Positions 3,968 through 58,926 of a stretch of 64,000 nt of DNA are shown piece by piece; position 1 is the first letter of the stretch, and each line of letters begins with the position of its first letter. Below the pieces are notes generated by a model. It did not search any database and was not told the origin of the DNA. It worked only from the letters and a program-made list of their open reading frames with translations. The stretch is from NCBI GenBank assembly GCA_046327815.1, contig JAXLXR010000001.1:260185-324184 (forward strand). The letters are read 5' to 3'. The DNA comes from Candidatus Eiseniibacteriota bacterium (GTDB lineage Bacteria > Eisenbacteria > RBG-16-71-46). The position numbers and the translations under genes are program-made.

Positions 3968-3969
3968 TC

Positions 3970-10079: not shown

Positions 10080-10181
10080 ACGCAGCGGTGCAGGTTGCAC
10101 GGTGAGTCCGCCGCGGGACCATCGGCGCACGGGAAATCGCTTGCCGCCGGCGGCCGTCGCTGGCCACAATCGTCGGCACTC

Positions 10182-22200: not shown

Positions 22201-22213
22201 GCCCGGCCACCGC

Positions 22214-24286: not shown

Positions 24287-25387
24287 ATGGCTGTCCGTTC
24301 CGCGGATCGAACCCACATGCTGCGCGCCCTGCGCCTGGCCGTGCGCGGGCGTGGGCGGACGGCGCCGAACCCGATGGTGGGCGCGGTCTTGGTGCGGAAC
24401 GGTGAAGTGGTCGGTGAGGGCTGGCACCGGCAGCACGGGAGCGCACACGCCGAAGTCGAGGCGTTGGCCGCCGCCGGCCGCCGCGCCCGTGGCGCGACGC
24501 TCTACGTGACGCTCGAACCCTGCGCGCACCACGGCAAGACGCCGCCGTGCACCGAGGCGCTGGTGGCCGCGGGCGTGCGCCGCTGCGTGGTGGCGCTGCG
24601 CGACCCGCACGACATCGTGAACGGCCGCGGGCTGCGCAAGCTGCGCGCCGCGGGGATCGCGGTCGAGGTCGGGCTCTGCGCCGACGAGGCGCGCGAACTG
24701 CTGGGCGGCTACGTGAGCGCCTGCGAACAGGGGCGACCGCGCGTGACCTGGAAGGTGGCGGCTTCGCTCGACGGCCGCATCGCCGACGCGCGGGGCCGCA
24801 GCAAGTGGATCACCGGCGCGGAGGCCCGCCGCCGTGGTCACGCGCTGCGCGCCGCCGCGGACGCGATCGTGGTGGGCGCCAACACCGCGCGCGCCGACGA
24901 CCCTCGGCTCACCGCGCGGCTCGGGCGTGGTACGCCGCAGCCGCTGCGCGTGGTGTGCGACAGCCGCCTGTCGCTGCCGCTCACGTTGAAGCTGTTCCGC
25001 GCCCCGCTCGCCGAGGGCACCGTGGTCGCGTGCGGCCGTGCCGCCGGCGCCGCGAAGGTGCGGGCGCTCGAAGCGCGCGGCGTGCAGGTCTGGCGCCTGC
25101 CGCTAGTGGGCGGCCGAGTGTCGCCGCGCGCGCTCGCGCAGCGGCTCGCCGTCGCGGGCCGGCACGAAGTGCTGCTCGAGGGCGGGGCCGTGCTCGGGCG
25201 GGCGTGGCTGCGCGCCGGGCTCGTGGATCGCATCGCGTTGTTCGTGGCGCCCTGCCTGCTCGGCGAAGGGCTGAGCTGGCTTGCGGGCGAGGGCTGGCCG
25301 CTGGCGCGGGCGCCGCGGGGCCGCATCGTGTCGCTCGAGCGCGCGGGAGCCGACGCGCTGCTCACCGTGGCCGTGGGAGGGAAGTGA
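24287..25387 (+). CDS. ribD: bifunctional diaminohydroxyphosphoribosylaminopyrimidine deaminase / 5-amino-6-(5-phosphoribosylamino)uracil reductase
   Basis: CMP/dCMP deaminase zinc motifs HAE...PCAHHGKTPPC; C-terminal RibD reductase domain. Confidence 0.92.
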   Translation: MAVRSADRTHMLRALRLAVRGRGRTAPNPMVGAVLVRNGEVVGEGWHRQHGSAHAEVEALAAAGRRARGATLYVTLEPCAHHGKTPPCTEALVAAGVRRCVVALRDPHDIVNGRGLRKLRAAGIAVEVGLCADEARELLGGYVSACEQGRPRVTWKVAASLDGRIADARGRSKWITGAEARRRGHALRAAADAIVVGANTARADDPRLTARLGRGTPQPLRVVCDSRLSLPLTLKLFRAPLAEGTVVACGRAAGAAKVRALEARGVQVWRLPLVGGRVSPRALAQRLAVAGRHEVLLEGGAVLGRAWLRAGLVDRIALFVAPCLLGEGLSWLAGEGWPLARAPRGRIVSLERAGADALLTVAVGGK

Positions 25388-25389
25388 CG

Positions 25390-25997
25390 ATGTTCACCGG
25401 CATCATCGAGGAACTCGGGCGCGTGGCCGCCCGCGAGGACCGGCCCGACGGCCGCCGCTTCTGGATCGAGGCGCCGCTCGTGTCCGAGGGGCTCGCGATC
25501 GGCGATTCGGTCGCGCACGGCGGCTGCTGCCTGACCGTGGTGGCGCGCGAGGGGGCGCGCTACGCCGTCGAGGCGGTGCCCGAGACGCTGCGGCTCACGA
25601 CGCTCGGCGACTGGCGCGAGGGCGACGCCGTCAATCTCGAGCGCTCCGTCGCGATGGGCGCGCGCCTCGGCGGGCACCTCGTGCAGGGGCACGTGGACGG
25701 CGTCGGCGAGGTGGTCGCCGTGACGCCCGAGGGCGACGGCCGGCGCGTGGCGCTGCGCGTGCCCGAGCCGCTGCGCCGATTCGTGGCGCACAAGGGCTCG
25801 CTCGCCGTGGACGGCGTCAGCCTGACCGTGGCCGCGCTCACCGCGGACGGCTGCGAAATCGCCTACATTCCGCACACGCTCGCGGTCACCACGGCCGGTA
25901 CCTACGTGCCGGGGCGACGCGTGCATCTCGAAGTGGACCTGCTGGCGCGCTACCTGGCGCGACTGCTGGAGGAAACCGGCATGCCCGGGAGGAACTC

Positions 25998-26001
<4 letters not shown>
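25390..26001 (+). CDS. ribE: riboflavin synthase alpha subunit
   Basis: MFTGIIEELG start and internal duplicated lumazine-binding halves. Confidence 0.9.
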
Positions 26002-27325
<1,324 letters not shown>

Positions 27326-27329
<4 letters not shown>

Positions 27330-27802
27330 GCCCGATCCACCGGCGTCCCGAAGCGGACGCGAACGGCCTGCGCTTCTGCCTCGTGGCCGCGCAATGGAAC
27401 GAAGCGATCGTGAACCGCCTCGTCGAGGGCGCGCTCGGCGTGCTCGCGGCGCAGGGCGCGCGCGACGAGGACATCGAGGTGCGCTGGGTGCCGGGCAGCT
27501 TCGAGCTGCCGGTCGCGGCGTTCTGGGCGGCGGGCTCGGGCGAGTTCGACGCGGTGCTCGCGTTCGGCTGCGTGATCCGCGGCGAGACCGAGCACTTCCG
27601 CATCGTCGCCGACGCCGCGGCGCAGGGGCTGCTGCGCGTCGCGCTCGACACCGGCGTGCCGGTGCTGAACGGCGTGCTCGCCACCTACGACGCCGCGCAG
27701 GCGGAGTCGCGCGCGGGCGGTGAACACGGCAACACGGGATCGCAGACCGCGCTCGCCGCGATCCGCATGGCGCGCGCCGCGCGGGAAGCGGGGACGCGAT
27801 GA
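27326..27802 (+). CDS. ribH: 6,7-dimethyl-8-ribityllumazine synthase
   Basis: Lumazine synthase fold (RFCLVAAQWNEAIVNRL...GSFELP...GVPVLNGVL). Confidence 0.9.
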
Positions 27803-28227
27803 CCGCCTCCACCACCGGCCGGCGCCGAGCGCGCGAAGTGGCGTTCCGCGTCGCGTTCCAGGCCGACGTCGCCGGCGACACCTACGCGCTCGCGTGGAAG
27901 CTGCGGCGCGAGGAAGAGGCGCTCAGCGACGACCAGACCGAACTGATCGAGGACATCGTGCGGCTACTCGAGGCGCGCGGCCCCGAAGTGGACACCGCGC
28001 TGCGCGAGTCGGCCGAGCACTGGCCTCTGCAGCGGCTCGCCGCCACCGACCGCGCGGTGCTGCGCATCGCGGTGGCCGAGCTGCTCGCGCGCCCGGGTTC
28101 GCCCGCGCGCGTCGTGCTCGACGAGGCGATCGACATGGCCGGCACGTACGGCGGCGACGAATCGGGGCGCTTCGTGAACGGCGTGCTCGACCGCGCCGCG
28201 CGCGCGCTCCGGCCGGGAGAGTTCTGA
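27799..28227 (+). CDS. nusB: transcription antitermination factor NusB
   Basis: 142 aa; AREVAFRVAFQ N-terminus; position after ribH as in many bacteria. Confidence 0.85.
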   Translation: MTASTTGRRRAREVAFRVAFQADVAGDTYALAWKLRREEEALSDDQTELIEDIVRLLEARGPEVDTALRESAEHWPLQRLAATDRAVLRIAVAELLARPGSPARVVLDEAIDMAGTYGGDESGRFVNGVLDRAARALRPGEF

Positions 28228-28952
28228 TGCTCCACGCGCTCGTCTCCGACATCCACGGCAACCTCGACGCGCTCGACACCGTGCTCGCCGACCTCGCGAA
28301 GCGGGGCGTCACGAGCATGGCGTGCCTCGGCGATTTCGTCGGCTACGGCGCCGCGCCCAACGAATGCATCGAGCGCCTGCGTCCGCTGATCGAGACCGCG
28401 GTCGCCGGCAATCACGACATGGCCGCGTCGGGCCGCATCAAGCTCGGCTACTTCAACGACGACGCCGCGCACGCCGCGCGCTGGACCATGGATGCGCTCA
28501 CCGAGGCGCACCTCGAATGGCTGCGTGCGCTGCCGCTGTCGGTGGCGTGGAAGGGCGTGCGACTGGTGCACAGCTCGCCCGCGGAACCCGAGGAGTGGCA
28601 CTACGTGCTCTCGCCCGGGGACGCCGCGTTCGAGATGGAGTCCTGCGAGGAGCGCATCTGCTTCATCGGGCACTCGCACTACCCGGGCACGTTCGTGCTC
28701 GACGGCGACTTCGTGAGCTACACGCGCGACCTCAAGGTCGCGGCGATGCCCGGCAAGCGCTACCTGATCAACGTCGCGAGCGTCGGCCAGCCGCGCGACG
28801 GCGACCCGCGCGCGGGCTACCTGCTGTACGACGACGAGCGCCTCACGTTCGAGCACGTGCGGCTCGACTACGACATCCCGGCCGCGATGAAGCGCATTCG
28901 CGACGCCGGGCTGCCGCCGTTCCTCGCGAACCGGCTGCAGTGGGGCGAGTAG
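28227..28952 (+). CDS. metallophosphoesterase (calcineurin-like phosphodiesterase, YfcE-like)
   Basis: Metal-ligand motifs DIHGN, GDFVGYG, GNHD, GHSH; ATG overlaps nusB stop. Confidence 0.8.
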   Translation: MLHALVSDIHGNLDALDTVLADLAKRGVTSMACLGDFVGYGAAPNECIERLRPLIETAVAGNHDMAASGRIKLGYFNDDAAHAARWTMDALTEAHLEWLRALPLSVAWKGVRLVHSSPAEPEEWHYVLSPGDAAFEMESCEERICFIGHSHYPGTFVLDGDFVSYTRDLKVAAMPGKRYLINVASVGQPRDGDPRAGYLLYDDERLTFEHVRLDYDIPAAMKRIRDAGLPPFLANRLQWGE

Positions 28953-28968: not shown

Positions 28969-29745
28969 ATGGCGCGCGCATCCACGCTGGATCACTGGGA
29001 GTCGTACTGGAAGGGCCACGCGACCGACATCGAGGACACGTACTCGACCGGCGGGCGGCTCGTGCGCGAAACGCTCGCGGACGGTCCGGTCGCGGGCAAG
29101 TGGGTGATGGAGATCGGCGCGGGTTCGGGCCGCGACCTGATCGAACTCGCGCGCATGGGCGCGCGGGGCATCGTGCTCGACTACTCGCCGGCCTCGCTCG
29201 CGCTGGTGAAGCGCCAGGCCGAGGCGCAGGGCGTGCCCGTGATGCTCGTGCAGGCCGACGCCACGCGCATGCCGTTCCGCGACCAGTCCATCGACGTGTC
29301 GTTCCACCAGGGCCTGCTCGAGCACTTCCGCGACCCGATGCCGCTGCTGAACGAGAACGCGCGAGTGACCGCGCGCGGCGGCCGCATGATCGTGGACGTG
29401 CCGCAGACGTTCCACCTGTACACGCTCATGAAGAACGTGCTCATCCTGCTGAACAAGTGGTTCGCGGGCTGGGAAACGCAGTTCACTCCGGCGCAGCTCG
29501 AGACGCTCTGCGCGTCCACCGGACTCGAGGTCGTGCGCACGTACGGCGACTGGATGGTGCCCGGGCTCTGGTACCGCGTGACGCGCGAGGTGCTCAAGCG
29601 CGGGCTCGGGATCCGGCTGCCGCTGCACCCGAAGGGCCCGGCGTTCTGGTCGAACGGCTGGGACGCGCTGCGCGCATCGTGGCGCGGGCAGCGCTGGGCG
29701 CTGTGGACGAGCCACGTCATCGGCACGGTGGCCCGCCGCCCATGA
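28969..29745 (+). CDS. class I SAM-dependent methyltransferase
   Basis: SAM-binding motif I VMEIGAGSGRD and acidic motif II VLDYSP. Confidence 0.75.
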   Translation: MARASTLDHWESYWKGHATDIEDTYSTGGRLVRETLADGPVAGKWVMEIGAGSGRDLIELARMGARGIVLDYSPASLALVKRQAEAQGVPVMLVQADATRMPFRDQSIDVSFHQGLLEHFRDPMPLLNENARVTARGGRMIVDVPQTFHLYTLMKNVLILLNKWFAGWETQFTPAQLETLCASTGLEVVRTYGDWMVPGLWYRVTREVLKRGLGIRLPLHPKGPAFWSNGWDALRASWRGQRWALWTSHVIGTVARRP

Positions 29746-30860
29746 ACCGTCCGCGCCACCTGCTCGCCGTGAACTTCCGCGACCCCGCGCATCCCGAGGC
29801 GGGCGGCGCGGAGCTGCACCTCGAGGAGATCCTGCTCGAGGCGGTGCGGCGCGGCTGGCGCGTGACGTGGCTCGCGAGCGGTTTCGTGAACGCTCCCTCC
29901 GAGGCCGAGCACCGCGGCATGCGCATCGTGCGCCGCGGCGACTGGTGGAACTTCAACCTCGTCGTCCCGCGCGTGCTGCATGCGGAGTTCTCGGGCACGA
30001 ACCAGCCCGACCTGGTCGTCGAGGACATCAACAAGGTGCCGTGCTTCTGCGCCCAGTACACGCAGGCGCCCGTCGCCGTGATCGTGCCGCACCTGTTCGG
30101 CACGACCGCGTTCCAGGAAGCGAACGCCGTGGTCGCCGCGTACGTGGTGCTGCTCGAGAAGCTGATCCCGTCCGCGTACCGCGGCTCGCGCTTCCTCGCG
30201 ATCTCCGAAAGCACGCGCGACGACCTCGTCGCGCGCGGCGTGCCCGCGTCGCGCATCGCGGTGGTGCACTGCGGTCTCGACCACGAACGCTACTTCGCCG
30301 ATCCCGGCGTGGCGAAGACGCCCGAGCCGACGCTCGTCTACGTCGGCCGGCTGCGCCGCTACAAGGGGCTCGACTGGGTCATCCGCACGCTGCCGCGGCT
30401 GCGCTCGTGGGTGCCGAAGCTGAAGCTGCACGTGATCGGCGACGGCCCGTGGCAGGGCGAGCTCGTGAAGCAGGCGGCCGCCTGCGGCGTGGCCGACATG
30501 GTCGAGTTCCGAGGCTTCCTGCCCGCGCGCGAGAAGGTGCCGACGATCCAGTCGGCGTGGGCGCTGGTGCAGCCGAGCCCCAAGGAGGGCTGGGGGCTCA
30601 CGGTGGTGGAGGCCGGCGCGTGCGCGACCGCGGTGGTCGCGGCCGACAGCCCGGGCCTGCGCGACTCCGTGCGCCGCGACCAGACCGGGTTGCTCGTGCC
30701 GTTCGGTGACGACGTCGCGCTCGCCGACGCGATCGCGCGCGTGTGCACGGAACCCGCGCTGCGCGACTCGCTCGCGAGTGCGGGCGTGCAGTGGGCGTCG
30801 GGATTCCGCTGGGACGATTGCGCGCGCCGGTCGCTCGACGCGCTGGCGGGGGAGGGCTGA
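29742..30860 (+). CDS. glycosyltransferase family 4
   Basis: GT-B C-terminal domain with EGWGLTVVEAGACATAVVAADSPGLRDSV (E-X7-E). Confidence 0.8.
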   Translation: MNRPRHLLAVNFRDPAHPEAGGAELHLEEILLEAVRRGWRVTWLASGFVNAPSEAEHRGMRIVRRGDWWNFNLVVPRVLHAEFSGTNQPDLVVEDINKVPCFCAQYTQAPVAVIVPHLFGTTAFQEANAVVAAYVVLLEKLIPSAYRGSRFLAISESTRDDLVARGVPASRIAVVHCGLDHERYFADPGVAKTPEPTLVYVGRLRRYKGLDWVIRTLPRLRSWVPKLKLHVIGDGPWQGELVKQAAACGVADMVEFRGFLPAREKVPTIQSAWALVQPSPKEGWGLTVVEAGACATAVVAADSPGLRDSVRRDQTGLLVPFGDDVALADAIARVCTEPALRDSLASAGVQWASGFRWDDCARRSLDALAGEG

Positions 30861-31879
30861 TGGCGCTTCCGGGCGGGCGTTCGCCGAAGACCATGATCCT
30901 GCTCGGGGCGAAGATCGTCGCCTCGTTCGCGCTCTTCTGGTGGCTCTACCACCGCGTGGACTGGGTGAACGCCGAAAACACGATCGCCCACGCGAAGCTC
31001 GAATGGCTCGGCGCCGCGTTCGGCATGCTGTTCCTGAGCAACATCGGCGGTGCCGCGCAGTGGAACCGGCTGCTGCGTGCGGCGGGCATCGAACTGCCGT
31101 TCTGGAAGGTCGTGGCCTACTACCACGTCGGCCTGTTCTTCAACAATTTCCTGCCCGCGAACGTCGGCGGCGACTTCGCGCGCGTGCTCGACGCCTCGCG
31201 CGCGAGCGACGTGTCGCGGACAACCGCGTTCTCGACCGTGCTGCTCGACCGCATGATCGGCACCGTCGCGCTCGGCGCGCTCGCGGTGCTCACGACGTTG
31301 CCCGCGCTCGACGACCAGCACATCCATTTCGAGATGCTGCTCGGGCTGTGGGGGGGCGCCACCGCGTTCTTCTTCGTGACCGTGCTCATGCTCTGGGCGG
31401 TGTTCCATCCCCGCCTGCTCGCGGCGATCGAGGGGCTGCTCGGCCGCGTCGGCCTCGGGCAGCTCAAGCCCGCGCTGGACGAGCTTTCGGAGCGGCTGGC
31501 GCTCTACCGGGGGCAGCGGCGAATGTTCATGGAATTGTTCGCCATCGCGCTCACCGTGCAGGTCCTGCGCATCGGCGTGCACATCCTGGTGGCCCGCGCG
31601 CTCGGCCTGAGCGTCCCGACGGCCTACTTCTTCCTTTTCGTGCCGTTGCTGGCGGTGATAGTTTCGCTGCCCATCTCATTCAATGGCATCGGGGTACGTG
31701 AAGGCGCGGGGATCTTCCTGTTCGGCCTGGTCGGGCTCGGGCAGGCGGCCGCGTTCTCGCTGCAGTTCACGACGTACCTCGTTGCCTTCGCGGTCAGCTT
31801 GATCGGGGGCATCGTGTTCCTGGTCCGCATCCCGCATCGCCGGGCGGAATCCCGGACTCCACGGAGGCCTGAGGAATGA
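30860..31879 (+). CDS. LPG_synthase_TM / flippase-like (UPF0104) membrane protein
   Basis: Polytopic; conserved YYHVGLFFNNFLPANVGGDFAR loop typical of the lysylphosphatidylglycerol-synthase TM-region family. Confidence 0.65.
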   Translation: MALPGGRSPKTMILLGAKIVASFALFWWLYHRVDWVNAENTIAHAKLEWLGAAFGMLFLSNIGGAAQWNRLLRAAGIELPFWKVVAYYHVGLFFNNFLPANVGGDFARVLDASRASDVSRTTAFSTVLLDRMIGTVALGALAVLTTLPALDDQHIHFEMLLGLWGGATAFFFVTVLMLWAVFHPRLLAAIEGLLGRVGLGQLKPALDELSERLALYRGQRRMFMELFAIALTVQVLRIGVHILVARALGLSVPTAYFFLFVPLLAVIVSLPISFNGIGVREGAGIFLFGLVGLGQAAAFSLQFTTYLVAFAVSLIGGIVFLVRIPHRRAESRTPRRPEE

Positions 31880-34518
31880 ACTCGAACACGAGAGTGGCCG
31901 GCCTGGTCGCTCTCCTCGTCTTCCTGATCACCGCGGTGGTGTACTTCCTGACGCTCACCCCCACGGTGCCGTTCTGGGATTCCGGCGAGTTCATCGGTGT
32001 GTCGTGGATCCTCGGCATTCCGCACCCCCCGGGTACGCCGTTCTACGTGCTGGTCGGGCGCATCGCCACGCTGCTGCCGATCGGCAGCGTCGCGCAGCGC
32101 GTCAACGGGCTGTCCGCGGTCGCCGGCGCCCTCTGCGTGTTCCTCACGTACCTGTCCATCCTGCGCATGGCGCGCCTGTCGCAGGGCGGCGAGCGCAAGG
32201 CGTGGCACGAGTGGGCGGCCATCGCGGGCGCGGCCTGCGGCGCGCTCATGCTCGCGTTCAGCGACACGTTCTGGGAGAACTCGACCGAGGCCGAGGTCTA
32301 CCAGATGATGAGCCTGGCCCAGATCCTCGTGTTCTGGCTCGGCCTGAAGTGGTGGGAGGCGCACGAGACCAAGCCCACCGTCGGCCCGCTGCTGCTCGCC
32401 ACGTTCATCATGTGGCTGAGCGTCGGCCTGCACCTCGGCGTCGGCGTCATGGGCGCGCCGCTGCTCGTGCTGGTCATGATGGTGGACTGGAAGGTCGGCA
32501 TGCTGTTCGTGCTGCCGTTCCTCGGGCTGCTGCGCGTGCCCGCGGGCCTCGAGAAGATGGCCGGCGCCGTGCTGCTGTTCTCGGTGGTCCAGAACTTCTG
32601 GTTCGTGTCGCAGAAGAAGCTCGAAGGCTGGCTCGCGACGGTCGCCGCGGCCGGCGCCGCGTTCGGGTTCTACTACGCGTCCTCGGACAAGGACTTCACG
32701 CCGCTCGCCGCGATCGTCGCCACGGCCGCGGTGGTCGTGCCACTCGCGTTCATGGCGGTGAAGCACAAGGAAGGGCGCGTCGGCCTGCTGATCCTGTTCC
32801 TCATGGTCGCGGGCTACTCGACCCACCTGTACCTGCCGATCCGCGCGGCGCAGCACCCCGGCATCAACGAGGGCGCGCCCGCCACGTGGAACTCGCTGCG
32901 CGACCTGCTCGAGCGCAAGCAGTACGGCGAGATGAGCATGACCGACTCGGACCGCGACGGCGTGTTCGACCGGCGCGGCATGACGACGTTCGAGGAAATC
33001 GCCGCGATCCAGCTCGACAAGGAGTTCTGGCGCTACTTCAGCCGCCAGTGGCCGATCATCCCGGGCGGCGCACCGCCCTTCTCGGCGCTGCTCCCGATCC
33101 TGCTCGGCATCGCCGGCGGCGTGTGGGCGTTCGCGAAGGACAAGCGGAGCTTCGCGTACAACTTCGTGTTCCTCGGGTTGAACACGGCCGGGCTCATCGT
33201 GTTCCTCAACTTCAGCAGCCACGAGGTGCGCGAGCGCGACTACTTCTTCCAGTCGGGCTACCACGCCTACGCCATGTGGATCGGCCTCGGCGTGGTGTGG
33301 CTGATCGCCTGGATCCGCGAGTCGTTCGCGGAAGGGCCGGGGCAGAAGTGGGCGACGATCGGCGCCGGCGTGCTGCTCTGCGCCCAGCCGTTCCTGCTCA
33401 TGAAGAACCTGTACTTCACGCACGACCGCAGCGGGAACTACATCGCGCGCGACTACGCCTACAACATGCTCGCGCCGCTCGCGCCGAACTCGTTCATGTT
33501 CACGAACGGCGACAACGACACGTTCCCGCTCTGGTACATCCAGCAGGTCGAGGGCTTCCGCAAGGACGTCCGCATCGTGAACCTGAGCCTGCTGAACACC
33601 GACTGGTACATCCGCCAGCTGCGCGACGAGGACCCGAAGCTCCCGATCACGTTCGACGACCGCATGGTGGACGCGCTCGGCGCCGGCATCGTGCAGGACG
33701 ACAAGGGCAACTACGTCCAGACGAACGAGGTCATGGTCCACCACCTGCTGCAGAACGCGCACAACGCCGACGGGACCTGGAAGCGGCAGCCGTACTTCGC
33801 CGTCACGGTGCCCGAGCACTACGGCTACGAGCGCCAGTTCCTGCTCGAAGGTCTCGTGAACCGCGTGCTGCCCGACACGGTCGGCGCGGGCGTGGACGAG
33901 GCGGCGACGCGCAAGGCGCTGTACGAGACGTTCCAGTACCGCGGCCTGTTCAACCCCGACGGCAGCAAGAACGAGAAGGTCTACAAGGACGAGAACTCGG
34001 AGACCCTGGCGCGCAACTACGCCGCGGCGCATCTCCAGCTCGCGTTCCACTACCGCCGCAAGGGCGACCTTCCGGCCGCGATCTCCGAGATGCAGGCGGT
34101 CGTGCGCGGCTTCCCGGACTTCCCGGAAGTGCAGATGCCGCTGGGCACGTTCTACATGGAAGCCGGCGACACCGCGAAGGCGATGGCGTTCTTCGCGGAC
34201 GTGGCGAAGCACAACCCGAACAACCCCGAGGCGCGCTACTACCACGGCGCCGCGCTCGCGGTCGAAGGCGACGTGAACGGCGCGATGCGCGAGTTCGACG
34301 CGGCGATCGCGCTCGACCCGAGCTACGACCAGCCGTACTTCGGCGCCTACTCGACGCTGCGCACGCTGGGGCAGGAGGAGCGCGCGTTCTCGTACCTGCA
34401 GCAGTGGGCGCAGCGCAACCCGAACGACCCGCGTGCCGCGAGCATCCTCGGCGTCGGCGGCGGTGCGGGCGGTCCTTCTCCGGGCGGCTCGCGTCCGCCC
34501 GTCACGCAGGTTCCGTAA
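31876..34518 (+). CDS. DUF2723 (PMT-like GT-C fold) membrane protein fused to C-terminal TPR repeats
   Basis: N-terminal motif PTVPFWDSGEF.....GIPHPPGTPFY characteristic of DUF2723; ~11 TM helices; C-terminal ~250 aa with TPR-like repeats. Confidence 0.75.
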   Translation: MNSNTRVAGLVALLVFLITAVVYFLTLTPTVPFWDSGEFIGVSWILGIPHPPGTPFYVLVGRIATLLPIGSVAQRVNGLSAVAGALCVFLTYLSILRMARLSQGGERKAWHEWAAIAGAACGALMLAFSDTFWENSTEAEVYQMMSLAQILVFWLGLKWWEAHETKPTVGPLLLATFIMWLSVGLHLGVGVMGAPLLVLVMMVDWKVGMLFVLPFLGLLRVPAGLEKMAGAVLLFSVVQNFWFVSQKKLEGWLATVAAAGAAFGFYYASSDKDFTPLAAIVATAAVVVPLAFMAVKHKEGRVGLLILFLMVAGYSTHLYLPIRAAQHPGINEGAPATWNSLRDLLERKQYGEMSMTDSDRDGVFDRRGMTTFEEIAAIQLDKEFWRYFSRQWPIIPGGAPPFSALLPILLGIAGGVWAFAKDKRSFAYNFVFLGLNTAGLIVFLNFSSHEVRERDYFFQSGYHAYAMWIGLGVVWLIAWIRESFAEGPGQKWATIGAGVLLCAQPFLLMKNLYFTHDRSGNYIARDYAYNMLAPLAPNSFMFTNGDNDTFPLWYIQQVEGFRKDVRIVNLSLLNTDWYIRQLRDEDPKLPITFDDRMVDALGAGIVQDDKGNYVQTNEVMVHHLLQNAHNADGTWKRQPYFAVTVPEHYGYERQFLLEGLVNRVLPDTVGAGVDEAATRKALYETFQYRGLFNPDGSKNEKVYKDENSETLARNYAAAHLQLAFHYRRKGDLPAAISEMQAVVRGFPDFPEVQMPLGTFYMEAGDTAKAMAFFADVAKHNPNNPEARYYHGAALAVEGDVNGAMREFDAAIALDPSYDQPYFGAYSTLRTLGQEERAFSYLQQWAQRNPNDPRAASILGVGGGAGGPSPGGSRPPVTQVP

Positions 34519-34530: not shown

Positions 34531-35484
34531 ATGGCCGTGCATGCGCTGGTGACCGGAGCGGCGGGGTTCATCGGGTCCACGCTGTCGGAGCGTCTGCTCG
34601 CCGACGGCGTGACCGTGACCGGCGTGGACTGCTTCACCGACTACTACGACGTGCGCCTCAAGCGGAAGAACCTCGAGAAGGCGCTCGCGCACCCGGGCTT
34701 CACGCTGCTCGAACTCGACCTCGGCGCCGCGGATCTCGCCGCGCTGCCGAAGGTGGACGTGGTATTCCACCAGGCGGCGCAGGCCGGCGTGCGGGCGTCG
34801 TGGGGCAAGGACTTCGCGTCCTACGCGCACCACAACGTGCTCGCCACCCAGCGGCTGCTCGAACGCTACCGCGACGAGACGCTGCAGCGCTTCGTGTACG
34901 CGTCGTCGTCGAGCGTGTACGGCGACGCCGAGCGCTACCCGACCGACGAGCAGCTGTTGCCGCGGCCGTTCTCGCCGTACGGCGTCACGAAGCTGGCGGC
35001 CGAGCACCTCGTGCTGCTCTACGGGCGCAACTTCGGCATCCCGGTCTCGGCGCTGCGCTACTTCACCGTGTACGGGCCGCGCCAGCGTCCCGACATGGCG
35101 TTCCACAAGTTCTGCAAGGCCATGCTGCAGGGTGACGAGATCCCGGTGTACGGCGACGGACGGCAGTCGCGCGACTTCACGTTCATCAGTGACGCGATCG
35201 AGGCGAACGTGCGCGCGTGGCAGCGCAGCGCCCCGCAGGGCGTGTACAACATCGGCGGCGGCTCGCAGGTGGACGTGCTCGAGGCGGTCGCCCTGCTCGA
35301 GGAGGCGCTCGGCGTGAAGGCGAAGCTGCGCTTCGAGCCGCGCCCGCCGGGCGATCCGCTGCGCACGCGCGCCGACGCGACCCGCCTGCGCGCCGACCTC
35401 GACTACGAGACCAAGGTGCCGATCCGCGAGGGCCTGTTCGCGGAAGCCGAGTGGGCGAAGACGCTCTACGGGGCGAAGGCGTGA
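34531..35484 (+). CDS. NAD-dependent nucleotide-sugar epimerase/dehydratase (extended SDR)
   Basis: GAAGFIGS Rossmann motif, catalytic SSSSVYG and YGVTK (YxxxK). Confidence 0.85.
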   Translation: MAVHALVTGAAGFIGSTLSERLLADGVTVTGVDCFTDYYDVRLKRKNLEKALAHPGFTLLELDLGAADLAALPKVDVVFHQAAQAGVRASWGKDFASYAHHNVLATQRLLERYRDETLQRFVYASSSSVYGDAERYPTDEQLLPRPFSPYGVTKLAAEHLVLLYGRNFGIPVSALRYFTVYGPRQRPDMAFHKFCKAMLQGDEIPVYGDGRQSRDFTFISDAIEANVRAWQRSAPQGVYNIGGGSQVDVLEAVALLEEALGVKAKLRFEPRPPGDPLRTRADATRLRADLDYETKVPIREGLFAEAEWAKTLYGAKA

Positions 35485-36422
35485 GCACCGAACCCCGCAT
35501 CTCGGCGGTGATCCCGGCCTACAACGAGGCCGAGAGCCTGCCCGAGCTCCACGGCGAGCTCGTGAAATCGTTCGAGTCGTTGGGGCTCCCGTGGGAAATC
35601 CTCTACGTGGACGACGGCTCGCGCGACGGCACCGCCGAGGTGATCGAGAAGCTGTGCGCGACCGACCCGCGCGTGCGCGGGATCCTGCTGCGCCGCAACT
35701 TCGGCAAGTCCGCCGCGCTCGCGACCGGTTTCAAGGCCGTGCGCGGCGAGTTCGTGGTCACGATGGACGCCGACCTGCAGGACGACCCGGTCGAGATCCC
35801 GCGCCTGCTGGCCGAACTCGACAAGGGGCTCGACCTCGTGTCGGGCTGGAAGGTGAAGCGCCTCGACCCGATCACGAAGACGCTGCCGAGCAAGCTCTTC
35901 AACCTCGTCACGTCGTCGGTCGCGGGGGTGAAGCTCCACGACTTCAACTGCGGCTTCAAGGTCTACCGCCGCGAAGTGGTGGACGCGCTCGAGGTGTACG
36001 GCGAGCTGCACCGCTTCCTGCCCGCGCTCGCGCACTGGCGCGGATTCCGCGTGGGCGAACTGGGCGTGCACCACCGCGCCCGCAAGTTCGGTCACTCGAA
36101 GTTCGGCGCCGCACGGTTCGTGAACGGCTTCCTCGACCTCATGGCCGCGGCGTTCATCTCGACGTCGGCGCTCAAGCCGCTGCACGTGTTCGGCCGCATC
36201 GGCGTCGTGTTCCTGCTCGTCGGGCTCGGGCTCGGCGGCTGGTTCGTGGGCTCGTGGCTGCACGGCGACCCGCAGCGCGTGCGCCCGCTCATGCTGCTCG
36301 GCGTCGGCTGCGTGCTGCTCGCGATCCAGTTCATCCTCATGGGCCTGCTCGGCGAGATGATCGCGCACCAGGCCGCGCGCGCCGACTACCCGGTGCGCCG
36401 GCGCTTCAACCTGGAAGACTGA
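35481..36422 (+). CDS. GT2 polyprenol-phosphate glycosyltransferase (ArnC/GtrB/DPM1-like) with C-terminal TM helices
   Basis: AVIPAYNEAESL, YVDDGSRDGT and MDADLQDDP motifs plus two C-terminal TM segments. Confidence 0.85.
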   Translation: MSTEPRISAVIPAYNEAESLPELHGELVKSFESLGLPWEILYVDDGSRDGTAEVIEKLCATDPRVRGILLRRNFGKSAALATGFKAVRGEFVVTMDADLQDDPVEIPRLLAELDKGLDLVSGWKVKRLDPITKTLPSKLFNLVTSSVAGVKLHDFNCGFKVYRREVVDALEVYGELHRFLPALAHWRGFRVGELGVHHRARKFGHSKFGAARFVNGFLDLMAAAFISTSALKPLHVFGRIGVVFLLVGLGLGGWFVGSWLHGDPQRVRPLMLLGVGCVLLAIQFILMGLLGEMIAHQAARADYPVRRRFNLED

Positions 36423-36424: not shown

Positions 36425-37114
36425 GTGAAGGCCTTCGTCCTCGCGGGCGGGCTCGGGACGCGGCTGCGGCCGCGCTTCGGAGACCTGCCCAAGGCGCTCG
36501 CGCCGCTGCAGGGACGGCCGTTCCTCGCGCGCATGCTCGGATGGCTGCGCGACCGCGGGCTGCCGCACGTGGTCGTCTGCGCGGGCTACGGCGCCGACCA
36601 GCTGCGCGACGCGCTCGGCGACGGCTCCGAGTTCGGCGTGACGCTCGAGTGGTCGGTCGAGCCCGAGCCCATGGGCACGGGCGGCGCGCTCAAGCTGGCC
36701 GAACCGTTCGTGGACGGCCCGGTGCTGGTCGTGAACGGCGACACGCTCGGCGACGCCGATCCGTGGACGCTCGAGCGCGACCGCTGGGAGCGGGGCGCGA
36801 TCGGCGCGGTGTCGCTCTACCGCGTGGACGAAGCCGCCGCGCGCGGTCGCGTGGAACACGAAGGCGACCGCATCGTGCGTTTCGTCGAGAAGGACGTGGA
36901 CTACCGCGGACCCGCGTGGGTCAATGGTGGGCAGTACGCGTTCTCGCCCGAGCTCTGGCGGTACCTGCCGGCGGGCGCGAGCTCGCTGGAGCGCGACGTG
37001 CTGCCGAAGCTCGCGGCGGCGGGACGACTGGCCGGCATCGAGAACGCCGGCCGCTTCTGGGACATCGGCACGCCCGAGGACTTCGAGCGGGCGGAGCGGG
37101 AGCTGCACGCATGA
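36425..37114 (+). CDS. sugar-1-phosphate nucleotidyltransferase (HddC/D-glycero-alpha-D-manno-heptose-1-phosphate guanylyltransferase-like)
   Basis: AFVLAGGLGTRLRP nucleotidyltransferase motif; 229 aa; paired with the downstream GHMP kinase. Confidence 0.75.
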   Translation: MKAFVLAGGLGTRLRPRFGDLPKALAPLQGRPFLARMLGWLRDRGLPHVVVCAGYGADQLRDALGDGSEFGVTLEWSVEPEPMGTGGALKLAEPFVDGPVLVVNGDTLGDADPWTLERDRWERGAIGAVSLYRVDEAAARGRVEHEGDRIVRFVEKDVDYRGPAWVNGGQYAFSPELWRYLPAGASSLERDVLPKLAAAGRLAGIENAGRFWDIGTPEDFERAERELHA

Positions 37115-38145
37115 AGCCGAACCTGAACCGCTACATCCGCGCCCGTGCACCGCTGCGGCTGAGCTTCTGCGGCGGCGGCACCGACGTGTCGCCGTACCCG
37201 GAAGAGCACGGCGGCTGCGTGCTGTCGGCCACGATCAATCACTACGCGTACGCGTCGCTGCGCCCGCGCCGCGATTCGCGGCTGACGCTCGCGAGCCTCG
37301 ACTACGACCTCGTGGCGAAGTACGACCACCCGCGGCGGCTCAAGTTCGACGGCACGCTCGACCTGCTCAAGGCGGCCGTGCGCGCGCTCAAGGTGAAGCG
37401 CGGCGCCGACCTCTGGACGCATTCCGACGCGCCTCCCGGCTCGGGTCTCGGTGCGTCGAGCACGCTGATGGTCGCGCTCATCGGTGCGCTGCGCGAGTGG
37501 CTCAAGCTCGACATGACGCCGTACGACGTCGCCGAGCTGGCGTTCAAGATCGAGCGCACCGACCTCAAGCTGGCCGGCGGGCGCCAGGACCAGTACGCCG
37601 CGGCGTTCGGCGGCTTCAACTTCATCGAGTTCCTGCCCGAGGGCACGGTGGTCACGCCGCTCAAGCTGCGCCGCGACACGCTCGAGGAGCTCGAGTACCG
37701 CCTGCTCATGTGCTACATGGGCCAGACGCGCCAGAGCGCGAAGATCATCGAGCGCCAGACGAAGTCCTACCGGCAGGGCAAGGCGTCCACCGTGGCCGCG
37801 CTCGACGCGCTCAAGGCCCAGACCGTGGACATGAAGCGCGCGCTGCTGCTGGGGCAGATCGACGGTTTCGGCGAACTGCTGCACCAGGCGTGGGAGCACA
37901 AGAAGCAGCTCGACGAGGGCATCTCGAACAGCCACGTGGACAAGCTCTACCAGCTCGCGCGCAAGGAAGGCGCGATCGGCGGCAAGATGCCCGGCGCGGG
38001 CGGCGGCGGCTACTTCCTGCTGCTCACGCGCTTCGACCGCCGGCACCGCGTCGCGGCCGCGCTCGAGAAGGCGGGCGGGCAGGTCGTGCCGTTCCAGTTC
38101 GAGGCGCGCGGCGTGCGGTCGTGGTCCGTCGCGCGCGAGCGCTGA
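37111..38145 (+). CDS. GHMP-family sugar kinase (HddA/D-glycero-alpha-D-manno-heptose 7-phosphate kinase-like)
   Basis: IRARAPLRLSFCGGGTD N-terminus and PPGSGLGASS ATP-binding motif. Confidence 0.8.
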   Translation: MKPNLNRYIRARAPLRLSFCGGGTDVSPYPEEHGGCVLSATINHYAYASLRPRRDSRLTLASLDYDLVAKYDHPRRLKFDGTLDLLKAAVRALKVKRGADLWTHSDAPPGSGLGASSTLMVALIGALREWLKLDMTPYDVAELAFKIERTDLKLAGGRQDQYAAAFGGFNFIEFLPEGTVVTPLKLRRDTLEELEYRLLMCYMGQTRQSAKIIERQTKSYRQGKASTVAALDALKAQTVDMKRALLLGQIDGFGELLHQAWEHKKQLDEGISNSHVDKLYQLARKEGAIGGKMPGAGGGGYFLLLTRFDRRHRVAAALEKAGGQVVPFQFEARGVRSWSVARER

Positions 38146-38155: not shown

Positions 38156-39313
38156 GTGAGCGCTCCGGCGCGCCGCATCGGACTCGTCGGCCCGCTGCAT
38201 CCGTGGCGGGGCGGGCTCGCGCAGTACCTCGGGCTGCTCGGCGAGGCGCTGAAGGCCCACGCCGAGGTGCGCGCGGTCACGTTCACGCGCCAGTACCCGG
38301 ACTTCCTGTTCCCGGGCACGAGCCAGTTCGACCCGAACGCGCGCCGTCCGGATTTCCCGACCGAGTCGCTGCTCGACTCGATCGGGCCCTGGTCGTGGAA
38401 GAAGACCGCCGCGCACCTCGAGCGCTTCGCGCCGGCCGCGGTGGTCCTCAAGTGGTGGATGCCGTTCTTCGCGCCGGCGTTCGCGTCGAGCGTGGGGCCG
38501 CTGCGCCGGCGAGGCACGCGCGTGATCCTCGTGTGCGACAACCTCGTGCCGCACGAGCCGAAGTTCTACGACTCGGCATTCACGGACTGGATGCTGCGCA
38601 ACTCCGACGGCTATCTCGTCATGTCGGACTCGGTGAACCGCGACCTCGACCGGCTCAAACCCGGCGCGCCGCGCCGCCGCGTGTCGCACCCGTTCTACGC
38701 CCAGTTCGACCAGAAGCGTTACGACCGCGCGTCGGCGCGCGCGAAGCTGGGGCTCACGGGCGACGTCGCGCTGTTCTTCGGGTACGTGCGGCACTACAAG
38801 GGGCTGGACACGCTGCTCGAGGCATGGCCGCTCGTGCGTGCGAAGCGGCCGGGCGCGACGCTCGTCGTGGCCGGCGAGTTCTACGAGAAGCCCGAGCCGT
38901 ACCGTGCGCTCGTGCAGGCGGCGGGCGAGGGCGCGGTGCGCCTGCTCGACCGCTACATCGCCGACGACGAGGTCGAGGCGCTGTTCCGCGCCGCGGACGT
39001 CACCGTGCTGCCGTACCGCAGCGCCACGCAGAGCGGCGTCACGCACGTCGCGTACGCGCTCGGCTGCCCGGTGATCGCGACGCACGTCGGCGGCATCACC
39101 GAGACCGTGCGCGAGAACGAGACCGGCCTGACCGCGCCGCCCGAAGACCCGCGCGCGCTCGCCGACACCATCGTGCGCTTCTTCGAGCAGGGCATGGCGC
39201 CGGCCATGGCGCCGCACATCGCGCGACTGCAGGCCGAGCATTCGTGGGAGGCGCTCGCGCACTCGACCGTGTCGCTGGTGGACGAACTGAAGCCGGGGAG
39301 GGCCTGGTCGTGA
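38156..39313 (+). CDS. glycosyltransferase family 4
   Basis: GT-B fold with C-terminal sugar-donor domain (LVVAGEFYE...SGVTHVAYALGCPVIATHVGGITETV). Confidence 0.8.
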   Translation: MSAPARRIGLVGPLHPWRGGLAQYLGLLGEALKAHAEVRAVTFTRQYPDFLFPGTSQFDPNARRPDFPTESLLDSIGPWSWKKTAAHLERFAPAAVVLKWWMPFFAPAFASSVGPLRRRGTRVILVCDNLVPHEPKFYDSAFTDWMLRNSDGYLVMSDSVNRDLDRLKPGAPRRRVSHPFYAQFDQKRYDRASARAKLGLTGDVALFFGYVRHYKGLDTLLEAWPLVRAKRPGATLVVAGEFYEKPEPYRALVQAAGEGAVRLLDRYIADDEVEALFRAADVTVLPYRSATQSGVTHVAYALGCPVIATHVGGITETVRENETGLTAPPEDPRALADTIVRFFEQGMAPAMAPHIARLQAEHSWEALAHSTVSLVDELKPGRAWS

Positions 39314-40899
39314 GCGATCCGCGCCGACCCACGCGCCGCGCCGCGCGCATCGTGGCGGTGGCTGCGTTCCTGCTGTTCGCGCTCACCGGCGGCGGGCGAA
39401 TTTCCGGCAGCGACGAAGTCACGATGTTCCAGCTCTCGCGCGCCATGCTGCACGGCGGGATCGCCGTGCCCGAGGGCGCCACGCTCGCCGGCCCCGACGG
39501 GCGGTTCTACAGCAAGAACACCGCGGGGCAGGCGGTGCTCGCGCTGCCGTTCGTGGCGGTGGGCGAGACCGCGGCCAAGGTCGCGGGCTTCCGCGAGTCG
39601 AAGGGCGAACTCGCGTCGCGGTTCGTGGCGTCGTTCCTGAACGCGCTGGTCGCCGCCGTGCTGCTGGGCGCGTTCTACGCGTTCACGCGCCGGCTCGGCG
39701 TGCGGGCGCGCGAAGCGCTCGCGGCCACGGCGCTGCTCGGCTTCACCACGCCGCTGTGGGTGTACGCGAAGAGCTTCATGGCCGAGCCGCTCGAGGCGCT
39801 CGGGCTCACGCTGGCGCTGGGCAACGCCGCGCTCGCGGGCGCGGGCGACGAGCGCTCGCTCGCCGACGAGCCGCGGCGGCTGCGCTACGCGGCCTTGGGC
39901 GCGTTCCTCGCGGTGAGCGCCAAGGCGAGCATGCTGCCGCTGGCGCTGCTCGCGCTGACCGCCATGGGCTTCCGGCGCTGGCAGCGCTGGTGGCTGCCGC
40001 TGTTCGGCGTGGCCGCGGCGATCGGCGGGCACCTGTTCTACAACTTCGCGCGCTTCCACGACCCGCTGCAGAGCGGCTACGGCGCGCAGCAGTCCGCGGC
40101 CGCGTTCTCGACGCCGCTGCTGGTCGGGCTCTACGGCCTGCTGCTGTCGTCGGGCAAGGGGCTGCTGTGGTTCGCGCCCGCGGCGTGGCTCGCGTTCGCG
40201 GGCTGGGCCGGGATGACGCGCTCGCGCCAGCACTCGAACGAGCCGCGTCACGGCCGCCCGGCGGCGCGCGCCGCGCGCGCGACGTGGGCGGTGCTGGCGG
40301 TGGCGCTCGTGCAGTTCGGCACGTTCCAGCACTGGGCGGGTGACGGATCGTGGGGCCCGCGCTACCTGGTGCCGATGCTGCCGCTGGTGTTCTTCGCCGT
40401 CGCGTTCGCGCTGCAGGGCGCGAGCCGCGCGCGCAAGCGCTGGGCGTGGGCGCTCGGGCTCGCGGGGCTGGTCGCCACGCTGGGCGGCGTCGGCATTCAC
40501 TACGGCGCCGAGATGCGCAAGGTCGGCGACTACCCCTACACGCTGCCGCTCGAACACCCGCGCTTCATGGAGTCGAGCCACTTCAACCCGCGCTTCAGCC
40601 CGCTGCTCGTGCACTGGCAGATGATCGGCGAGAACGCCGCGGCGCACGCGCGCGGCGAGATGCCGCGGATTGGGGCGCAGGCGCCCGCGCAGCCGGCGAA
40701 TACCACGTCGCGCCTCGGCATCTCGGAATCCGACCAGGCCGCGCTGCTCGGCGCGTTCGACCTGTGGTGGATGTACGCACGCTACGCCGGCATCCCTGCC
40801 GCGCCGCTCAACGCCGCCGCGCTCGTGCTCGCCGTGGCGTCCTTGTGGGGCTGTGCCGCGGCGTTCGACGCCGCGTCGCGGGACCGTGAGGACGCGTGA
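39310..40899 (+). CDS. polytopic membrane protein, GT-C-like (ArnT/PMT_2-related)
   Basis: ~12 predicted TM segments; N-terminal periplasmic loop with conserved acidic residues (SGSDEV); GTGA overlap. Confidence 0.5.
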   Translation: MSDPRRPTRRAARIVAVAAFLLFALTGGGRISGSDEVTMFQLSRAMLHGGIAVPEGATLAGPDGRFYSKNTAGQAVLALPFVAVGETAAKVAGFRESKGELASRFVASFLNALVAAVLLGAFYAFTRRLGVRAREALAATALLGFTTPLWVYAKSFMAEPLEALGLTLALGNAALAGAGDERSLADEPRRLRYAALGAFLAVSAKASMLPLALLALTAMGFRRWQRWWLPLFGVAAAIGGHLFYNFARFHDPLQSGYGAQQSAAAFSTPLLVGLYGLLLSSGKGLLWFAPAAWLAFAGWAGMTRSRQHSNEPRHGRPAARAARATWAVLAVALVQFGTFQHWAGDGSWGPRYLVPMLPLVFFAVAFALQGASRARKRWAWALGLAGLVATLGGVGIHYGAEMRKVGDYPYTLPLEHPRFMESSHFNPRFSPLLVHWQMIGENAAAHARGEMPRIGAQAPAQPANTTSRLGISESDQAALLGAFDLWWMYARYAGIPAAPLNAAALVLAVASLWGCAAAFDAASRDREDA

Positions 40900-58881: not shown

Positions 58882-58926
58882 GTGGTGATTTTTGGGGGAA
58901 CGGGGGGAAACCGGGTGACCGGTGGA
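58882..58926 (+). promoter_or_regulatory. candidate MraZ-binding direct repeats (dcw cluster promoter)
   Basis: GTGGTgatttt-TGGGGgaacg-GGGGGaaacc-GGGTGaccgg-TGGAG: G-rich pentamers at 10-bp periodicity immediately upstream of mraZ. Confidence 0.55.

Follow-up and report, generated by a model that had tools for sequence, protein, structure and literature searches.

The closest characterised relative of the protein described here is human TMEM260. It was found in 2023 through the DUF2723 model as the protein O-mannosyltransferase for IPT domains and was described as a GT-C (glycosyltransferase fold C) core with tetratricopeptide repeats (TPR); the same paper mentions only "distant homologs in bacteria" (PMC10214176). 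Cryo-electron microscopy structures (PDB 9RQL, 9RQM and 9RQN) revealed 11 transmembrane (TM) helices, a luminal Rossmann-like "palm" at residues 416-564 and a TPR "finger" at residues 565-706, and the unfolded peptide is gripped along the TPR/palm groove (bioRxiv 10.64898/2026.03.17.711096). Alanine mutants of D52, H67, R264, Y267 and D441 lost all activity, R355A retained about 20%, and D441 in the palm was proposed as the general base (bioRxiv 10.64898/2026.03.17.711096). Herein, we analysed a bacterial gene with this layout (positions 31876-34518, + strand) and its neighbours in a stretch of 64,000 nucleotides from Candidatus Eiseniibacteriota bacterium (contig JAXLXR010000001.1), which is called the window below. 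The gene product is very probably a bacterial member of the TMEM260 family (PF11028, CAZy GT117) whose donor is a polyprenyl-phosphate-linked sugar.

Family membership and domain layout

The GC content of the window is about 70%, so spurious open reading frames (ORFs) are plentiful. The GT-C gene is an ATG-to-TAA ORF of 880 aa, and we judged it truly coding because the GC content of its frame is 0.97 at the third codon position and 0.43 at the second. A Pfam scan placed PF11028, formerly DUF2723 and now named "Protein O-mannosyl-transferase TMEM260-like", on aa 35-203 (E=7e-41, 140.4 bits against a cut-off of 24.2). In addition, TPR_19, TPR_14, TPR_2 and TPR_16 matched aa 729-822. The motif PTVPFWDSGEF lies at aa 29-39. 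An identical protein (P0001) is deposited as 'DUF2723 domain-containing protein [Candidatus Eisenbacteria bacterium]', from a 521-kb contig of a metagenome-assembled genome (MAG), and PF28495 (TMEM260_2) is precomputed for it and for orthologues. With the first 700 aa as the query, the family comprised 15,989 clusters at 50% identity (E<=1e-3).

Human TMEM260 was the sole non-TPR match among PDB sequences (E=1.3e-23 with the single sequence and 2.9e-39 with a profile; phmmer and hmmsearch), and PMT chains were absent from these matches. At E<=0.01, only PF11028 and TPR models matched the protein. None of the models that mark TMTC, PMT/POMT and ArnT/Rgt enzymes (DUF1736, PMT (PF02366), PMT_2, MIR and PMT_4TMC) did so, which places the protein outside the TMTC, PMT and ArnT families; its likeness to them is confined to fold class and logic.

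The TPR module proved to be a standard part of the family. TPR models occurred together with PF11028 and PF28495 in 120/120 closest homologues (57-100% identity, 859-916 aa). Among 24 homologues at 29-39% identity, PF11028 was present in 24/24 and TPR_19 in 16/24. Since this is the canonical architecture, the proper comparator is the homologue TMEM260 rather than TMTC, an analogue without a sequence-family match. An earlier note, made from the DNA letters and a list of their ORFs, had recognised the DUF2723 family by its N-terminal motif, and the Pfam match and the motif position bear this out. The same note regarded the substrate of the family as unknown, the TPR region as a special addition and TMTC as the model, and these three points have to be given up. 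Read as an unusual new DUF2723-TPR fusion of unknown substrate that converged on TMTC, the gene has a TMTC-like domain order as the sole point in its favour. The repeats in close and distant homologues and in human TMEM260, the missing DUF1736, PMT and PMT_2 matches, and the known activity of the family rule this out as extremely improbable; human TMEM260 is a proven dolichyl-phosphate-mannose (Dol-P-Man) protein O-mannosyltransferase (PMC10214176). The fusion as first stated is not new, because work on the human enzyme had settled the activity, structure and mechanism of the family from 2023 to 2026.

The domain layout was taken from an AlphaFold2 model built on 44 homologues of ~60% identity (predicted local distance difference test (pLDDT) score 83.3, predicted template modelling score (pTM) 0.81). 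A helical membrane core up to ~aa 516, an alpha/beta domain (aa 523-700 in the model) and ten TPR-type helices follow each other.

31876-33423, + strand (aa 1-516): membrane GT-C core with ~13 predicted TM helices and a predicted cytoplasmic N-terminus (AlphaFold2 helices, hydropathy, lysine/arginine counts of the loops)
33424-33975, + strand (aa 517-700): predicted periplasmic alpha/beta (Rossmann-like) palm domain (AlphaFold2 strands and helices, alignment to 9RQL residues 406-535)
33991-34458, + strand (aa 706-861): TPR finger domain, ten helices in 4-5 repeats (Pfam, AlphaFold2, Foldseek)

The core aligned to human TMEM260 residues 29-306 and 328-406 (phmmer, hmmsearch). In the palm, the model has strands at 540-543, 566-569, 605-607, 613-615, 639-642, 655-657 and 661-664, with helices flanking them. 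Foldseek matched the TPR region to consensus TPR proteins and to the TPR region of OGT. The best non-TPR matches, in a fold library without the solved TMEM260 entries, were the GT-C oligosaccharyltransferases PglB, AglB and STT3, which together with the helical core agrees with the GT-C fold proposed earlier. The number of TM helices was derived from the AlphaFold2 helices combined with loop charges; sliding-window hydropathy alone did not settle it.

Lysine/arginine-rich loops (aa 97-108, 158-169, 246-250, 295-301, 421-424 and 481-491) share one side of the membrane, which we took as cytoplasmic. On the opposite side are the loops at aa 26-71, 128-141, 327-401 and 445-454, which carry conserved acidic and aromatic residues, and the C-terminal domains. 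The positions of the mapped catalytic residues and the positive-inside rule put the palm and the TPR domain on the periplasmic side, the same as loop 1. In the predicted orientation, the TPR domain is thus in all likelihood periplasmic, as the earlier note had expected, and not cytoplasmic. Two of its figures changed: it had counted ~11 TM helices and ~250 aa of TPR, compared with ~13 helices within aa 1-516 and ~155 aa of TPR helices (aa 706-861) in our model. Its C-terminal placement of the TPR held, but it had missed the Rossmann-like domain between the core and the repeats. The pLDDT fell below 50 at aa 48-52, 327-332 and 347-360, which are the counterparts of the human sugar-recognition and mobile donor-loading loops.

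Counterparts of the human catalytic residues

The six residues validated in the human enzyme have the following counterparts in the GT-C protein: D52 corresponds to D35, H67 to H50, R264 to R347, Y267 to Y350, R355 to R454 and D441 to D546. All six were invariant in the 44 homologues and in both sets of ~30% identity, one of which holds 24 sequences. Five of them fall in three motifs of the membrane core.

31960-32034, + strand: first periplasmic loop, PTVPFWDSGEF...GIPHPPG, the sugar-recognition motif with D35, E38 and H50; invariant in all three alignments
32914-32928, + strand: R347-K-Q-Y350-G351 in a flexible periplasmic loop, counterpart of the human donor-loading loop R264-E-E-Y267-G
33223-33249, + strand: EVRERDYFF (aa 450-458), in which E453-R454 equals human E354-R355 at the start of TM helix 10 (hmmsearch domain E=5e-11)

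The alignment of D35 and H50 with D52 and H67 of 9RQL had a domain E-value of 5e-15 and a profile E-value of 2.5e-26. R347, Q349 and Y350 were invariant at ~30% identity, as were R452, R454 and Y456; G351 was invariant only in the ~60% set. The sixth residue, D546, corresponds to D441, the catalytic base of the human enzyme, and belongs to the palm motif FTNGDNDTFPLW (aa 542-553). N544-G545-D546 aligns to human R439-G440-D441, and G545, D546, N547 and D548 were invariant in the ~30% set. Given the family membership and the invariant catalytic residues, we infer that the protein would perform the same chemistry as its human homologue, an inverting transfer of a sugar from polyprenyl phosphate to a hydroxyl group.

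The operon and its recurrence across lineages

The GT-C gene is flanked on the + strand by the following genes.

28227-28952, + strand: metallophosphoesterase
28969-29745, + strand: class I S-adenosylmethionine-dependent methyltransferase, a conserved partner
29727-30860, + strand: cytoplasmic GT4 glycosyltransferase, of which specific orthologues accompany TMEM260-like genes
30860-31879, + strand: UPF0104/PplT (LPG_synthase_TM) flippase-like membrane protein (PF03706 E=5.5e-38; TIGR00374 'flippase-like domain')
34531-35484, + strand: short-chain dehydrogenase/reductase epimerase, nearest to UDP-glucuronic acid (UDP-GlcA) 4-epimerases (PDB 6ZL6/6ZLD E=9e-78, MoeE5 9e-59, GalE 5e-43)
35496-36422, + strand: ArnC/GtrB-type polyprenyl-phosphate glycosyltransferase (GT2 with C-terminal TM helices)
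36425-37114, + strand: HddC-like sugar-1-phosphate nucleotidyltransferase
37111-38145, + strand: HddA/WcbL-like GHMP sugar kinase

The ATG of the GT-C gene overlaps the stop codon of the UPF0104 gene (ATGA), and GGAGG is found 9 nt upstream; the GT-C gene is translationally coupled to the UPF0104/PplT gene. The probable ATG of the latter, at 30860, itself overlaps the GT4 stop codon, and the epimerase gene begins 12 nt past the GT-C stop codon. ATGA and TGATG start/stop overlaps recur among the + strand genes of the operon, and no terminator-like site separates the + strand genes in the interval 28.9-38.1 kb.

Of the structures nearest to the epimerase, 6ZLD is a UDP-GlcA 4-epimerase (PMC11519531). 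The ArnC-like GT2 matched the ArnC structure over its full length (E=1e-56), followed by GtrB (3e-28) and Dol-P-Man synthase (DPMS, 1e-17), and its NCBIfam matches were ArnC, PgfS and AglJ. The HddC-like nucleotidyltransferase also resembles mannose-1-phosphate guanylyltransferases (E=2e-40). For the GT4 and the methyltransferase, PDB and NCBIfam matches were at the family level only (sucrose-phosphate synthase, 6e-16; assorted methyltransferases, ~1e-9). The metallophosphoesterase was considered as an LpxH-like enzyme and rejected, NCBIfam giving only weak generic phosphodiesterase matches. The HddC/HddA-like pair (36425-38145, + strand) is of the GDP-heptose pathway type, and neither a GmhA isomerase nor a GmhB phosphatase was among the window ORFs scanned against Pfam.

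In Eisenbacteria, the gene order (phosphoesterase, methyltransferase, GT4, UPF0104, GT-C, epimerase, ArnC-like GT2 and, in most loci, nucleotidyltransferase and kinase) was retained at both ~60% and ~35% GT-C identity. A scan of species-representative genomes gave 80 loci with TMEM260-like genes across the Fibrobacterota-Chlorobiota-Bacteroidota (FCB) group and allied phyla. They include Latescibacterota, KSB1, Zixibacteria, Marinimicrobia, Ignavibacteria, Chlorobi, Bacteroidota, Rhodothermales, Balneolales, Gemmatimonadota, Cloacimonadota, Calditrichota, Fibrobacterota, WOR-3 and Krumholzibacteriota. The six-frame ORFs of these loci were queried with the neighbour proteins of the window, and the orthologues beside TMEM260-like genes scored as follows.

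GT4: 210-372 bits (unrelated GT4s, <=45 bits)
Methyltransferase: 187-278 bits
UPF0104: 92-237 bits
ArnC-like GT2: 325-366 bits

Orthologues of the methyltransferase, GT4, UPF0104 or ArnC-like proteins lay within 3 kb of the GT-C gene, in shuffled order, in KSB1, Cytophagia, Chitinophagaceae, Ignavibacteriales, Zixibacteria, Chlorobiaceae, Latescibacterota and Fibrobacterota, eight named FCB-group lineages outside Eisenbacteria. Partner matches within 10 kb were mostly within 3 kb (GT4, 22/22; methyltransferase, 16/16; UPF0104, 13/14; epimerase, 12/13; ArnC-like GT2, 12/17), and the comparison of the two distances is an internal control for the enrichment. The ArnC-like GT2 accompanies the GT-C gene in Latescibacterota, Fibrobacterota and divergent Eisenbacteria. 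Pfam counts of same-strand neighbours at the 75 non-Eisenbacteria loci gave GT4 (13 downstream and 3 upstream), GT2 (12), GT9 (8) and PF03706 (7), besides the housekeeping neighbours RecG, HemN-like, YbeY and signal peptidase I. Roughly half of the loci lacked all of the partner genes of the window. GT2s adjoining the GT-C gene in Marinimicrobia-type loci were considered as polyprenyl-phosphate synthases and proved to be generic MftF/rhamnosyltransferase-like enzymes.

Signal peptidase I, located by a relaxed regular-expression pattern, was two genes (~2 kb) upstream of the TMEM260-like gene in 7/75 loci, with one ORF of ~380 aa between them. These loci (L019, L033, L037, L040, L046, L061 and L064) are from Ignavibacteriales, Chitinophagaceae, Chlorobiaceae and related MAGs. 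The methyltransferase and the GT4 are directly downstream in L019, L033, L037, L040 and L061, and the GT4 only in L046 and L064. Tandem duplicates of the TMEM260-like gene were seen at L017 (9965-15388), L018 (527-5987), L020 (9648-15079) and L035 (6695-12427), in Cytophagia, KSB1, Latescibacterota and one unclassified MAG. In three of the four loci, the paralogues share 61-62% identity in the core and 30-42% in the TPR tail.

The wider locus extends to ~57 kb and holds further GT4/GT2 genes, a Wzx-like flippase, an AsnB-like amidotransferase and three more multi-TM putative glycosyltransferases. The AsnB-type glutamine amidotransferase (45179-47227, + strand, 682 aa) adjoins the Wzx-like flippase (43712-45151) and could amidate a uronic acid. 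The window encodes a further four multi-TM putative GT-C-type proteins, all on the + strand: a PMT_2/ArnT-like protein (22157-23956), an LA_3751/3752-family putative glycosyltransferase (39310-40899), a protein with a YfhO-like C-terminus (48372-50798) and one with an AftB-like N-terminus (57200-58738). Together with the TMEM260-like protein, five putative GT-C enzymes are encoded within 64 kb, which is unusually dense. The YfhO-like gene is followed by a gene for a 238-aa AglJ/PpgS/DPM-like GT2 (the two span 48372-51514, + strand), the ATG of which overlaps the YfhO-like stop codon by one base; the two genes look like a second pair of polyprenyl-phosphate-sugar synthase and GT-C enzyme in the locus.

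A C-terminal domain of the FlgD_ig type occurs in three proteins (51522-53765, 10095-11024 and 16746-18866, all + strand). The first of them, within the glycan locus, has Reg_prop beta-propeller repeats, and its C-terminus matches type IX secretion PorZ at E=2e-21, below the model cut-off. These FlgD_ig/PorZ-like proteins hint at type IX secretion and surface attachment in the style of anionic lipopolysaccharide (LPS) in the source Eisenbacteria genome. Two adjacent minus-strand ORFs (12604-15189, 861 aa; 15186-15890, 234 aa) have a coding-type third-position GC content and no Pfam match at E<=1e-3. The flanking + strand genes are of the housekeeping kind: cbb3 oxidase genes with ccoG/FixH and a copper ATPase (1679-9924), a riboflavin operon with nusB (24287-28227) and the start of a cell-division cluster with mraZ, rsmH and ftsI (58922-63453).

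Donor, acceptor and comparison with known systems

We assembled these observations into one pathway, a TMEM260-family GT-C enzyme that takes its undecaprenyl-phosphate (Und-P) sugar from neighbouring gene products and transfers it in the periplasm, likely to protein; taken as a whole, we give this explanation about an even chance. The nucleotide sugar could be UDP-galacturonic acid (UDP-GalA), made by the UDP-GlcA 4-epimerase-like enzyme, or a sugar of the GDP-heptose/GDP-mannose type from the HddA/HddC-like pair. The ArnC-like GT2 would load it on Und-P at the cytoplasmic face, and the UPF0104/PplT protein would flip the lipid-linked sugar. The ~13 TM helices may then hold the lipid-linked donor, D35, H50, R347/Y350 of the flexible loop and R454 placing the sugar-phosphate, and the sugar would be transferred in the periplasm with D546 as the base. 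The acceptor would be Ser/Thr in extended stretches of exported, still unfolded proteins, held by the TPR/palm groove.

The supply of the donor by the neighbouring GT2 and flippase-like protein is probable. Rhizobial RgtE makes bactoprenyl-P-GalA for GT-C enzymes (PMC7663294). Precedents for the flipping step are MprF, GpgF and archaeal AglD, a Dol-P-sugar GT2 with a fused UPF0104 domain (PMC5898192). That the sugar is something other than mannose, possibly a uronic acid or a heptose, could go either way in our estimation, and the literal name "O-mannosyltransferase" may be wrong for it. If the name were right, Und-P-mannose would come from enzymes encoded at another genomic site, and the GT2 and epimerase next to the GT-C gene would work for other glycosyltransferases of the locus. 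All four mannose-contacting residues of the human enzyme (D52, H67, Y267 and R355) are conserved, the nucleotidyltransferase resembles mannose-1-phosphate guanylyltransferases as given above, and the four other putative GT-C proteins of the window could use the ArnC-like product. Nevertheless, the GT2 is nearby, co-oriented and in the same operon, and it follows the GT-C gene into Latescibacterota, Fibrobacterota and divergent Eisenbacteria. It is also far nearer to ArnC than to Dol-P-Man synthase, and the gene between it and the GT-C gene is of the UDP-GlcA 4-epimerase type. We therefore consider literal O-mannosyl transfer improbable.

The GT4 and the methyltransferase raise a further alternative, in which GT2, GT4 and methyltransferase build a short methylated oligosaccharide on undecaprenyl monophosphate, UPF0104 flips it and the GT-C enzyme transfers it en bloc, as a counterpart of the haloarchaeal Dol-P-oligosaccharide route. 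Such a scheme would assign a role to every conserved partner. The GT2 matches AglJ (E=4e-23) and the nucleotidyltransferase AglF (E=3e-25), the AglD fusion (PMC5898192) is archaeal, and generic GT2s are directly beside the GT-C gene in other phyla. However, the Agl resemblance is at the family level, with all scores under the model cut-offs; human TMEM260 adds a single, non-extended mannose, and no member of its family is known to use oligosaccharide donors. En bloc transfer is accordingly very unlikely.

Whether the acceptor is a protein, as the earlier note thought plausible, is an evenly balanced question. A Ser/Thr protein acceptor is a reasonable inference and is favoured by homology, since human TMEM260 glycosylates protein; the TPR divergence of the tandem paralogues and the proximity of signal peptidase I are weak support for it. 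Several observations weigh against the proposed pathway as a whole. No characterised bacterial DUF2723/PF11028/TMEM260 homologue, nor a Bacteroidota O-oligosaccharyltransferase with TPR, was found in the literature searched. The mapping of R347 and Y350 comes from a locally weak, non-significant alignment in which the R-x-x-Y-G spacing is the same. The PMT_2-type GT-C protein 12 kb upstream could be the one that the ArnC-like GT2 serves. Regular expressions for the human TMEM260 sequon and for looser IPT/TIG starts found none in the six frames of the window. The asparagine ladder on the concave face of the human TPR (N602, N638, N642 and N680), with one asparagine per repeat and required by the human enzyme, was not found in the bacterial repeats: the ladder position carries Q721, P755 and Y789, and only N707 and N714 in the first TPR helix are conserved (19/24 sequences). 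The ladder is a trait of acceptor recruitment and not of family membership. The palm motifs FTNGDNDTFPLW and VNLSLLNTxWY are invariant in bacteria and differ from the human ones, which could reflect one common non-protein acceptor. A GT9 heptosyltransferase is directly downstream of the GT-C gene in 8 loci (assigned to Ignavibacteria on the basis of ORF sizes), and these neighbours hint at LPS. Finally, the most widely conserved partners, GT4 and methyltransferase, have no role in a simple transfer of a lipid-linked monosaccharide to protein and could not act after a periplasmic step. For UPF0104 proteins, a link to phospholipids and glycolipids (MprF, GpgF) is better documented than one to polyprenyl-phosphate sugars.

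Many of these points would fit a lipid-anchored glycan as the acceptor. The GT4, with or without the methyltransferase, would build a glycolipid, UPF0104 would flip it, and the GT-C enzyme would decorate this glycolipid, the LPS core or lipid A from the Und-P-sugar. The orthologues of GT4, methyltransferase and UPF0104 are the most widely conserved neighbours, and they fit a lipid-anchored acceptor about as well as a protein. The translocator of the lipid in MprF is a UPF0104 domain, and a Pseudomonas GT4 plus UPF0104 operon makes, and probably flips, GlcN-phosphatidylglycerol (GpgS/GpgF; PMC12713373). The epimerase and the ArnC-like GT2 have a parallel in rhizobia, where bactoprenyl-P-GalA is the donor for lipid A and core (PMC7663294). 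The GT4/methyltransferase partners, the GT4-UPF0104 operon, the GT9 neighbours, the missing asparagine ladder and the invariant palm motifs make this a serious rival. RgtE with RgtA-D, ArnC with ArnT, and mycobacterial PimA/B followed by PPM and GT-C enzymes are known parallels. On the other side, the sole characterised member of the family glycosylates polypeptides, and its base and donor residues are all conserved here, whereas the lipid-acceptor GT-C enzymes (ArnT, Rgt) belong to other families. We know of no such enzyme that carries a TPR module. In the tandem paralogues, the TPR diverges ~2x faster than the core, as expected for a module that recognises diverse macromolecular clients. For these reasons, we regard the lipid-anchored acceptor as unlikely but tenable, and transfer to protein as the preferred reading.

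What we infer beyond the current annotation is only the conserved partner module and the hint of a non-mannose donor. A wider proposal, which is speculative and which we hold to be rather doubtful, is that methyltransferase, GT4, UPF0104/PplT, ArnC-like GT2 and TMEM260-like GT-C would form an undescribed periplasmic glycosylation pathway of the FCB group, ancestral to metazoan TMEM260 O-mannosylation. Exported proteins, still unfolded on leaving the Sec translocon, would be O-glycosylated by it, possibly among them the surface proteins of these phyla that bear a C-terminal domain (CTD). The sugar would be a uronic acid or heptose instead of mannose, and a PplT-family protein would be the polyprenyl-phosphate-sugar flippase. 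The TMEM260-like gene belongs here to an operon with translational coupling, in which every step of donor supply has a candidate gene. Its partner genes, recurring in at least eight FCB-group lineages, make a concrete system for TMEM260-like glycosylation in bacteria. The operon could reveal bacterial acceptors, the flipping of polyprenyl-phosphate sugars by UPF0104/PplT and the origin of metazoan IPT-domain O-mannosylation.

We compared the locus with four kinds of known systems. First, TMTC1-4 (GT105) and PMT/POMT (GT39) share the GT-C fold and an acidic residue in the first extracytoplasmic loop, and their donors are polyprenyl-phosphate-mannose. TMTC1-4 also end in TPRs, a likeness of architecture only. 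Both groups are analogues without a sequence-family match, and the presumed catalytic base of the protein described here is in a separate soluble domain. Second, UPF0104 is genetically coupled to a glycosyltransferase for lipid-linked sugars, as here, in haloarchaeal AglD (a GT2-UPF0104 fusion) and in P. aeruginosa GpgSDF (GT4, deacetylase and a UPF0104 flippase candidate). Neither of them has a TMEM260-type GT-C protein, and flipping is putative in all.

Third, ArnC/ArnT and rhizobial RgtE/RgtA-D follow the logic that is proposed here: an ArnC-type GT2 loads a UDP-GlcA-derived sugar on Und-P, the product is flipped, and a GT-C enzyme transfers the sugar in the periplasm. RgtE loads GalA, and UDP-GalA is the product of UDP-GlcA 4-epimerases, the type to which the epimerase beside our GT-C gene belongs. 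In contrast to ArnT and Rgt, the GT-C protein is GT117 and not GT83, has a palm and a TPR domain, and is accompanied by UPF0104/PplT as the flippase candidate instead of ArnE/F. Finally, human TMEM260 (GT117), which acts in the endoplasmic reticulum on the IPT domains of plexins, cMET and RON, shares PF11028 and PF28495, the same order of parts and the six validated residues. Its catalytic domains face away from the cytoplasm, as is predicted for the bacterial protein. The bacterial protein differs in having ~13 instead of 11 TM helices, an insertion at ~aa 205-300 and a length of 880 instead of 707 aa. Its palm motifs are different and more strongly conserved, and its TPR is without the asparagine ladder. 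In place of dolichyl phosphate, its lipid carrier must be undecaprenyl phosphate, and the genes of the operon suggest a uronic acid or a heptose as the donor sugar.

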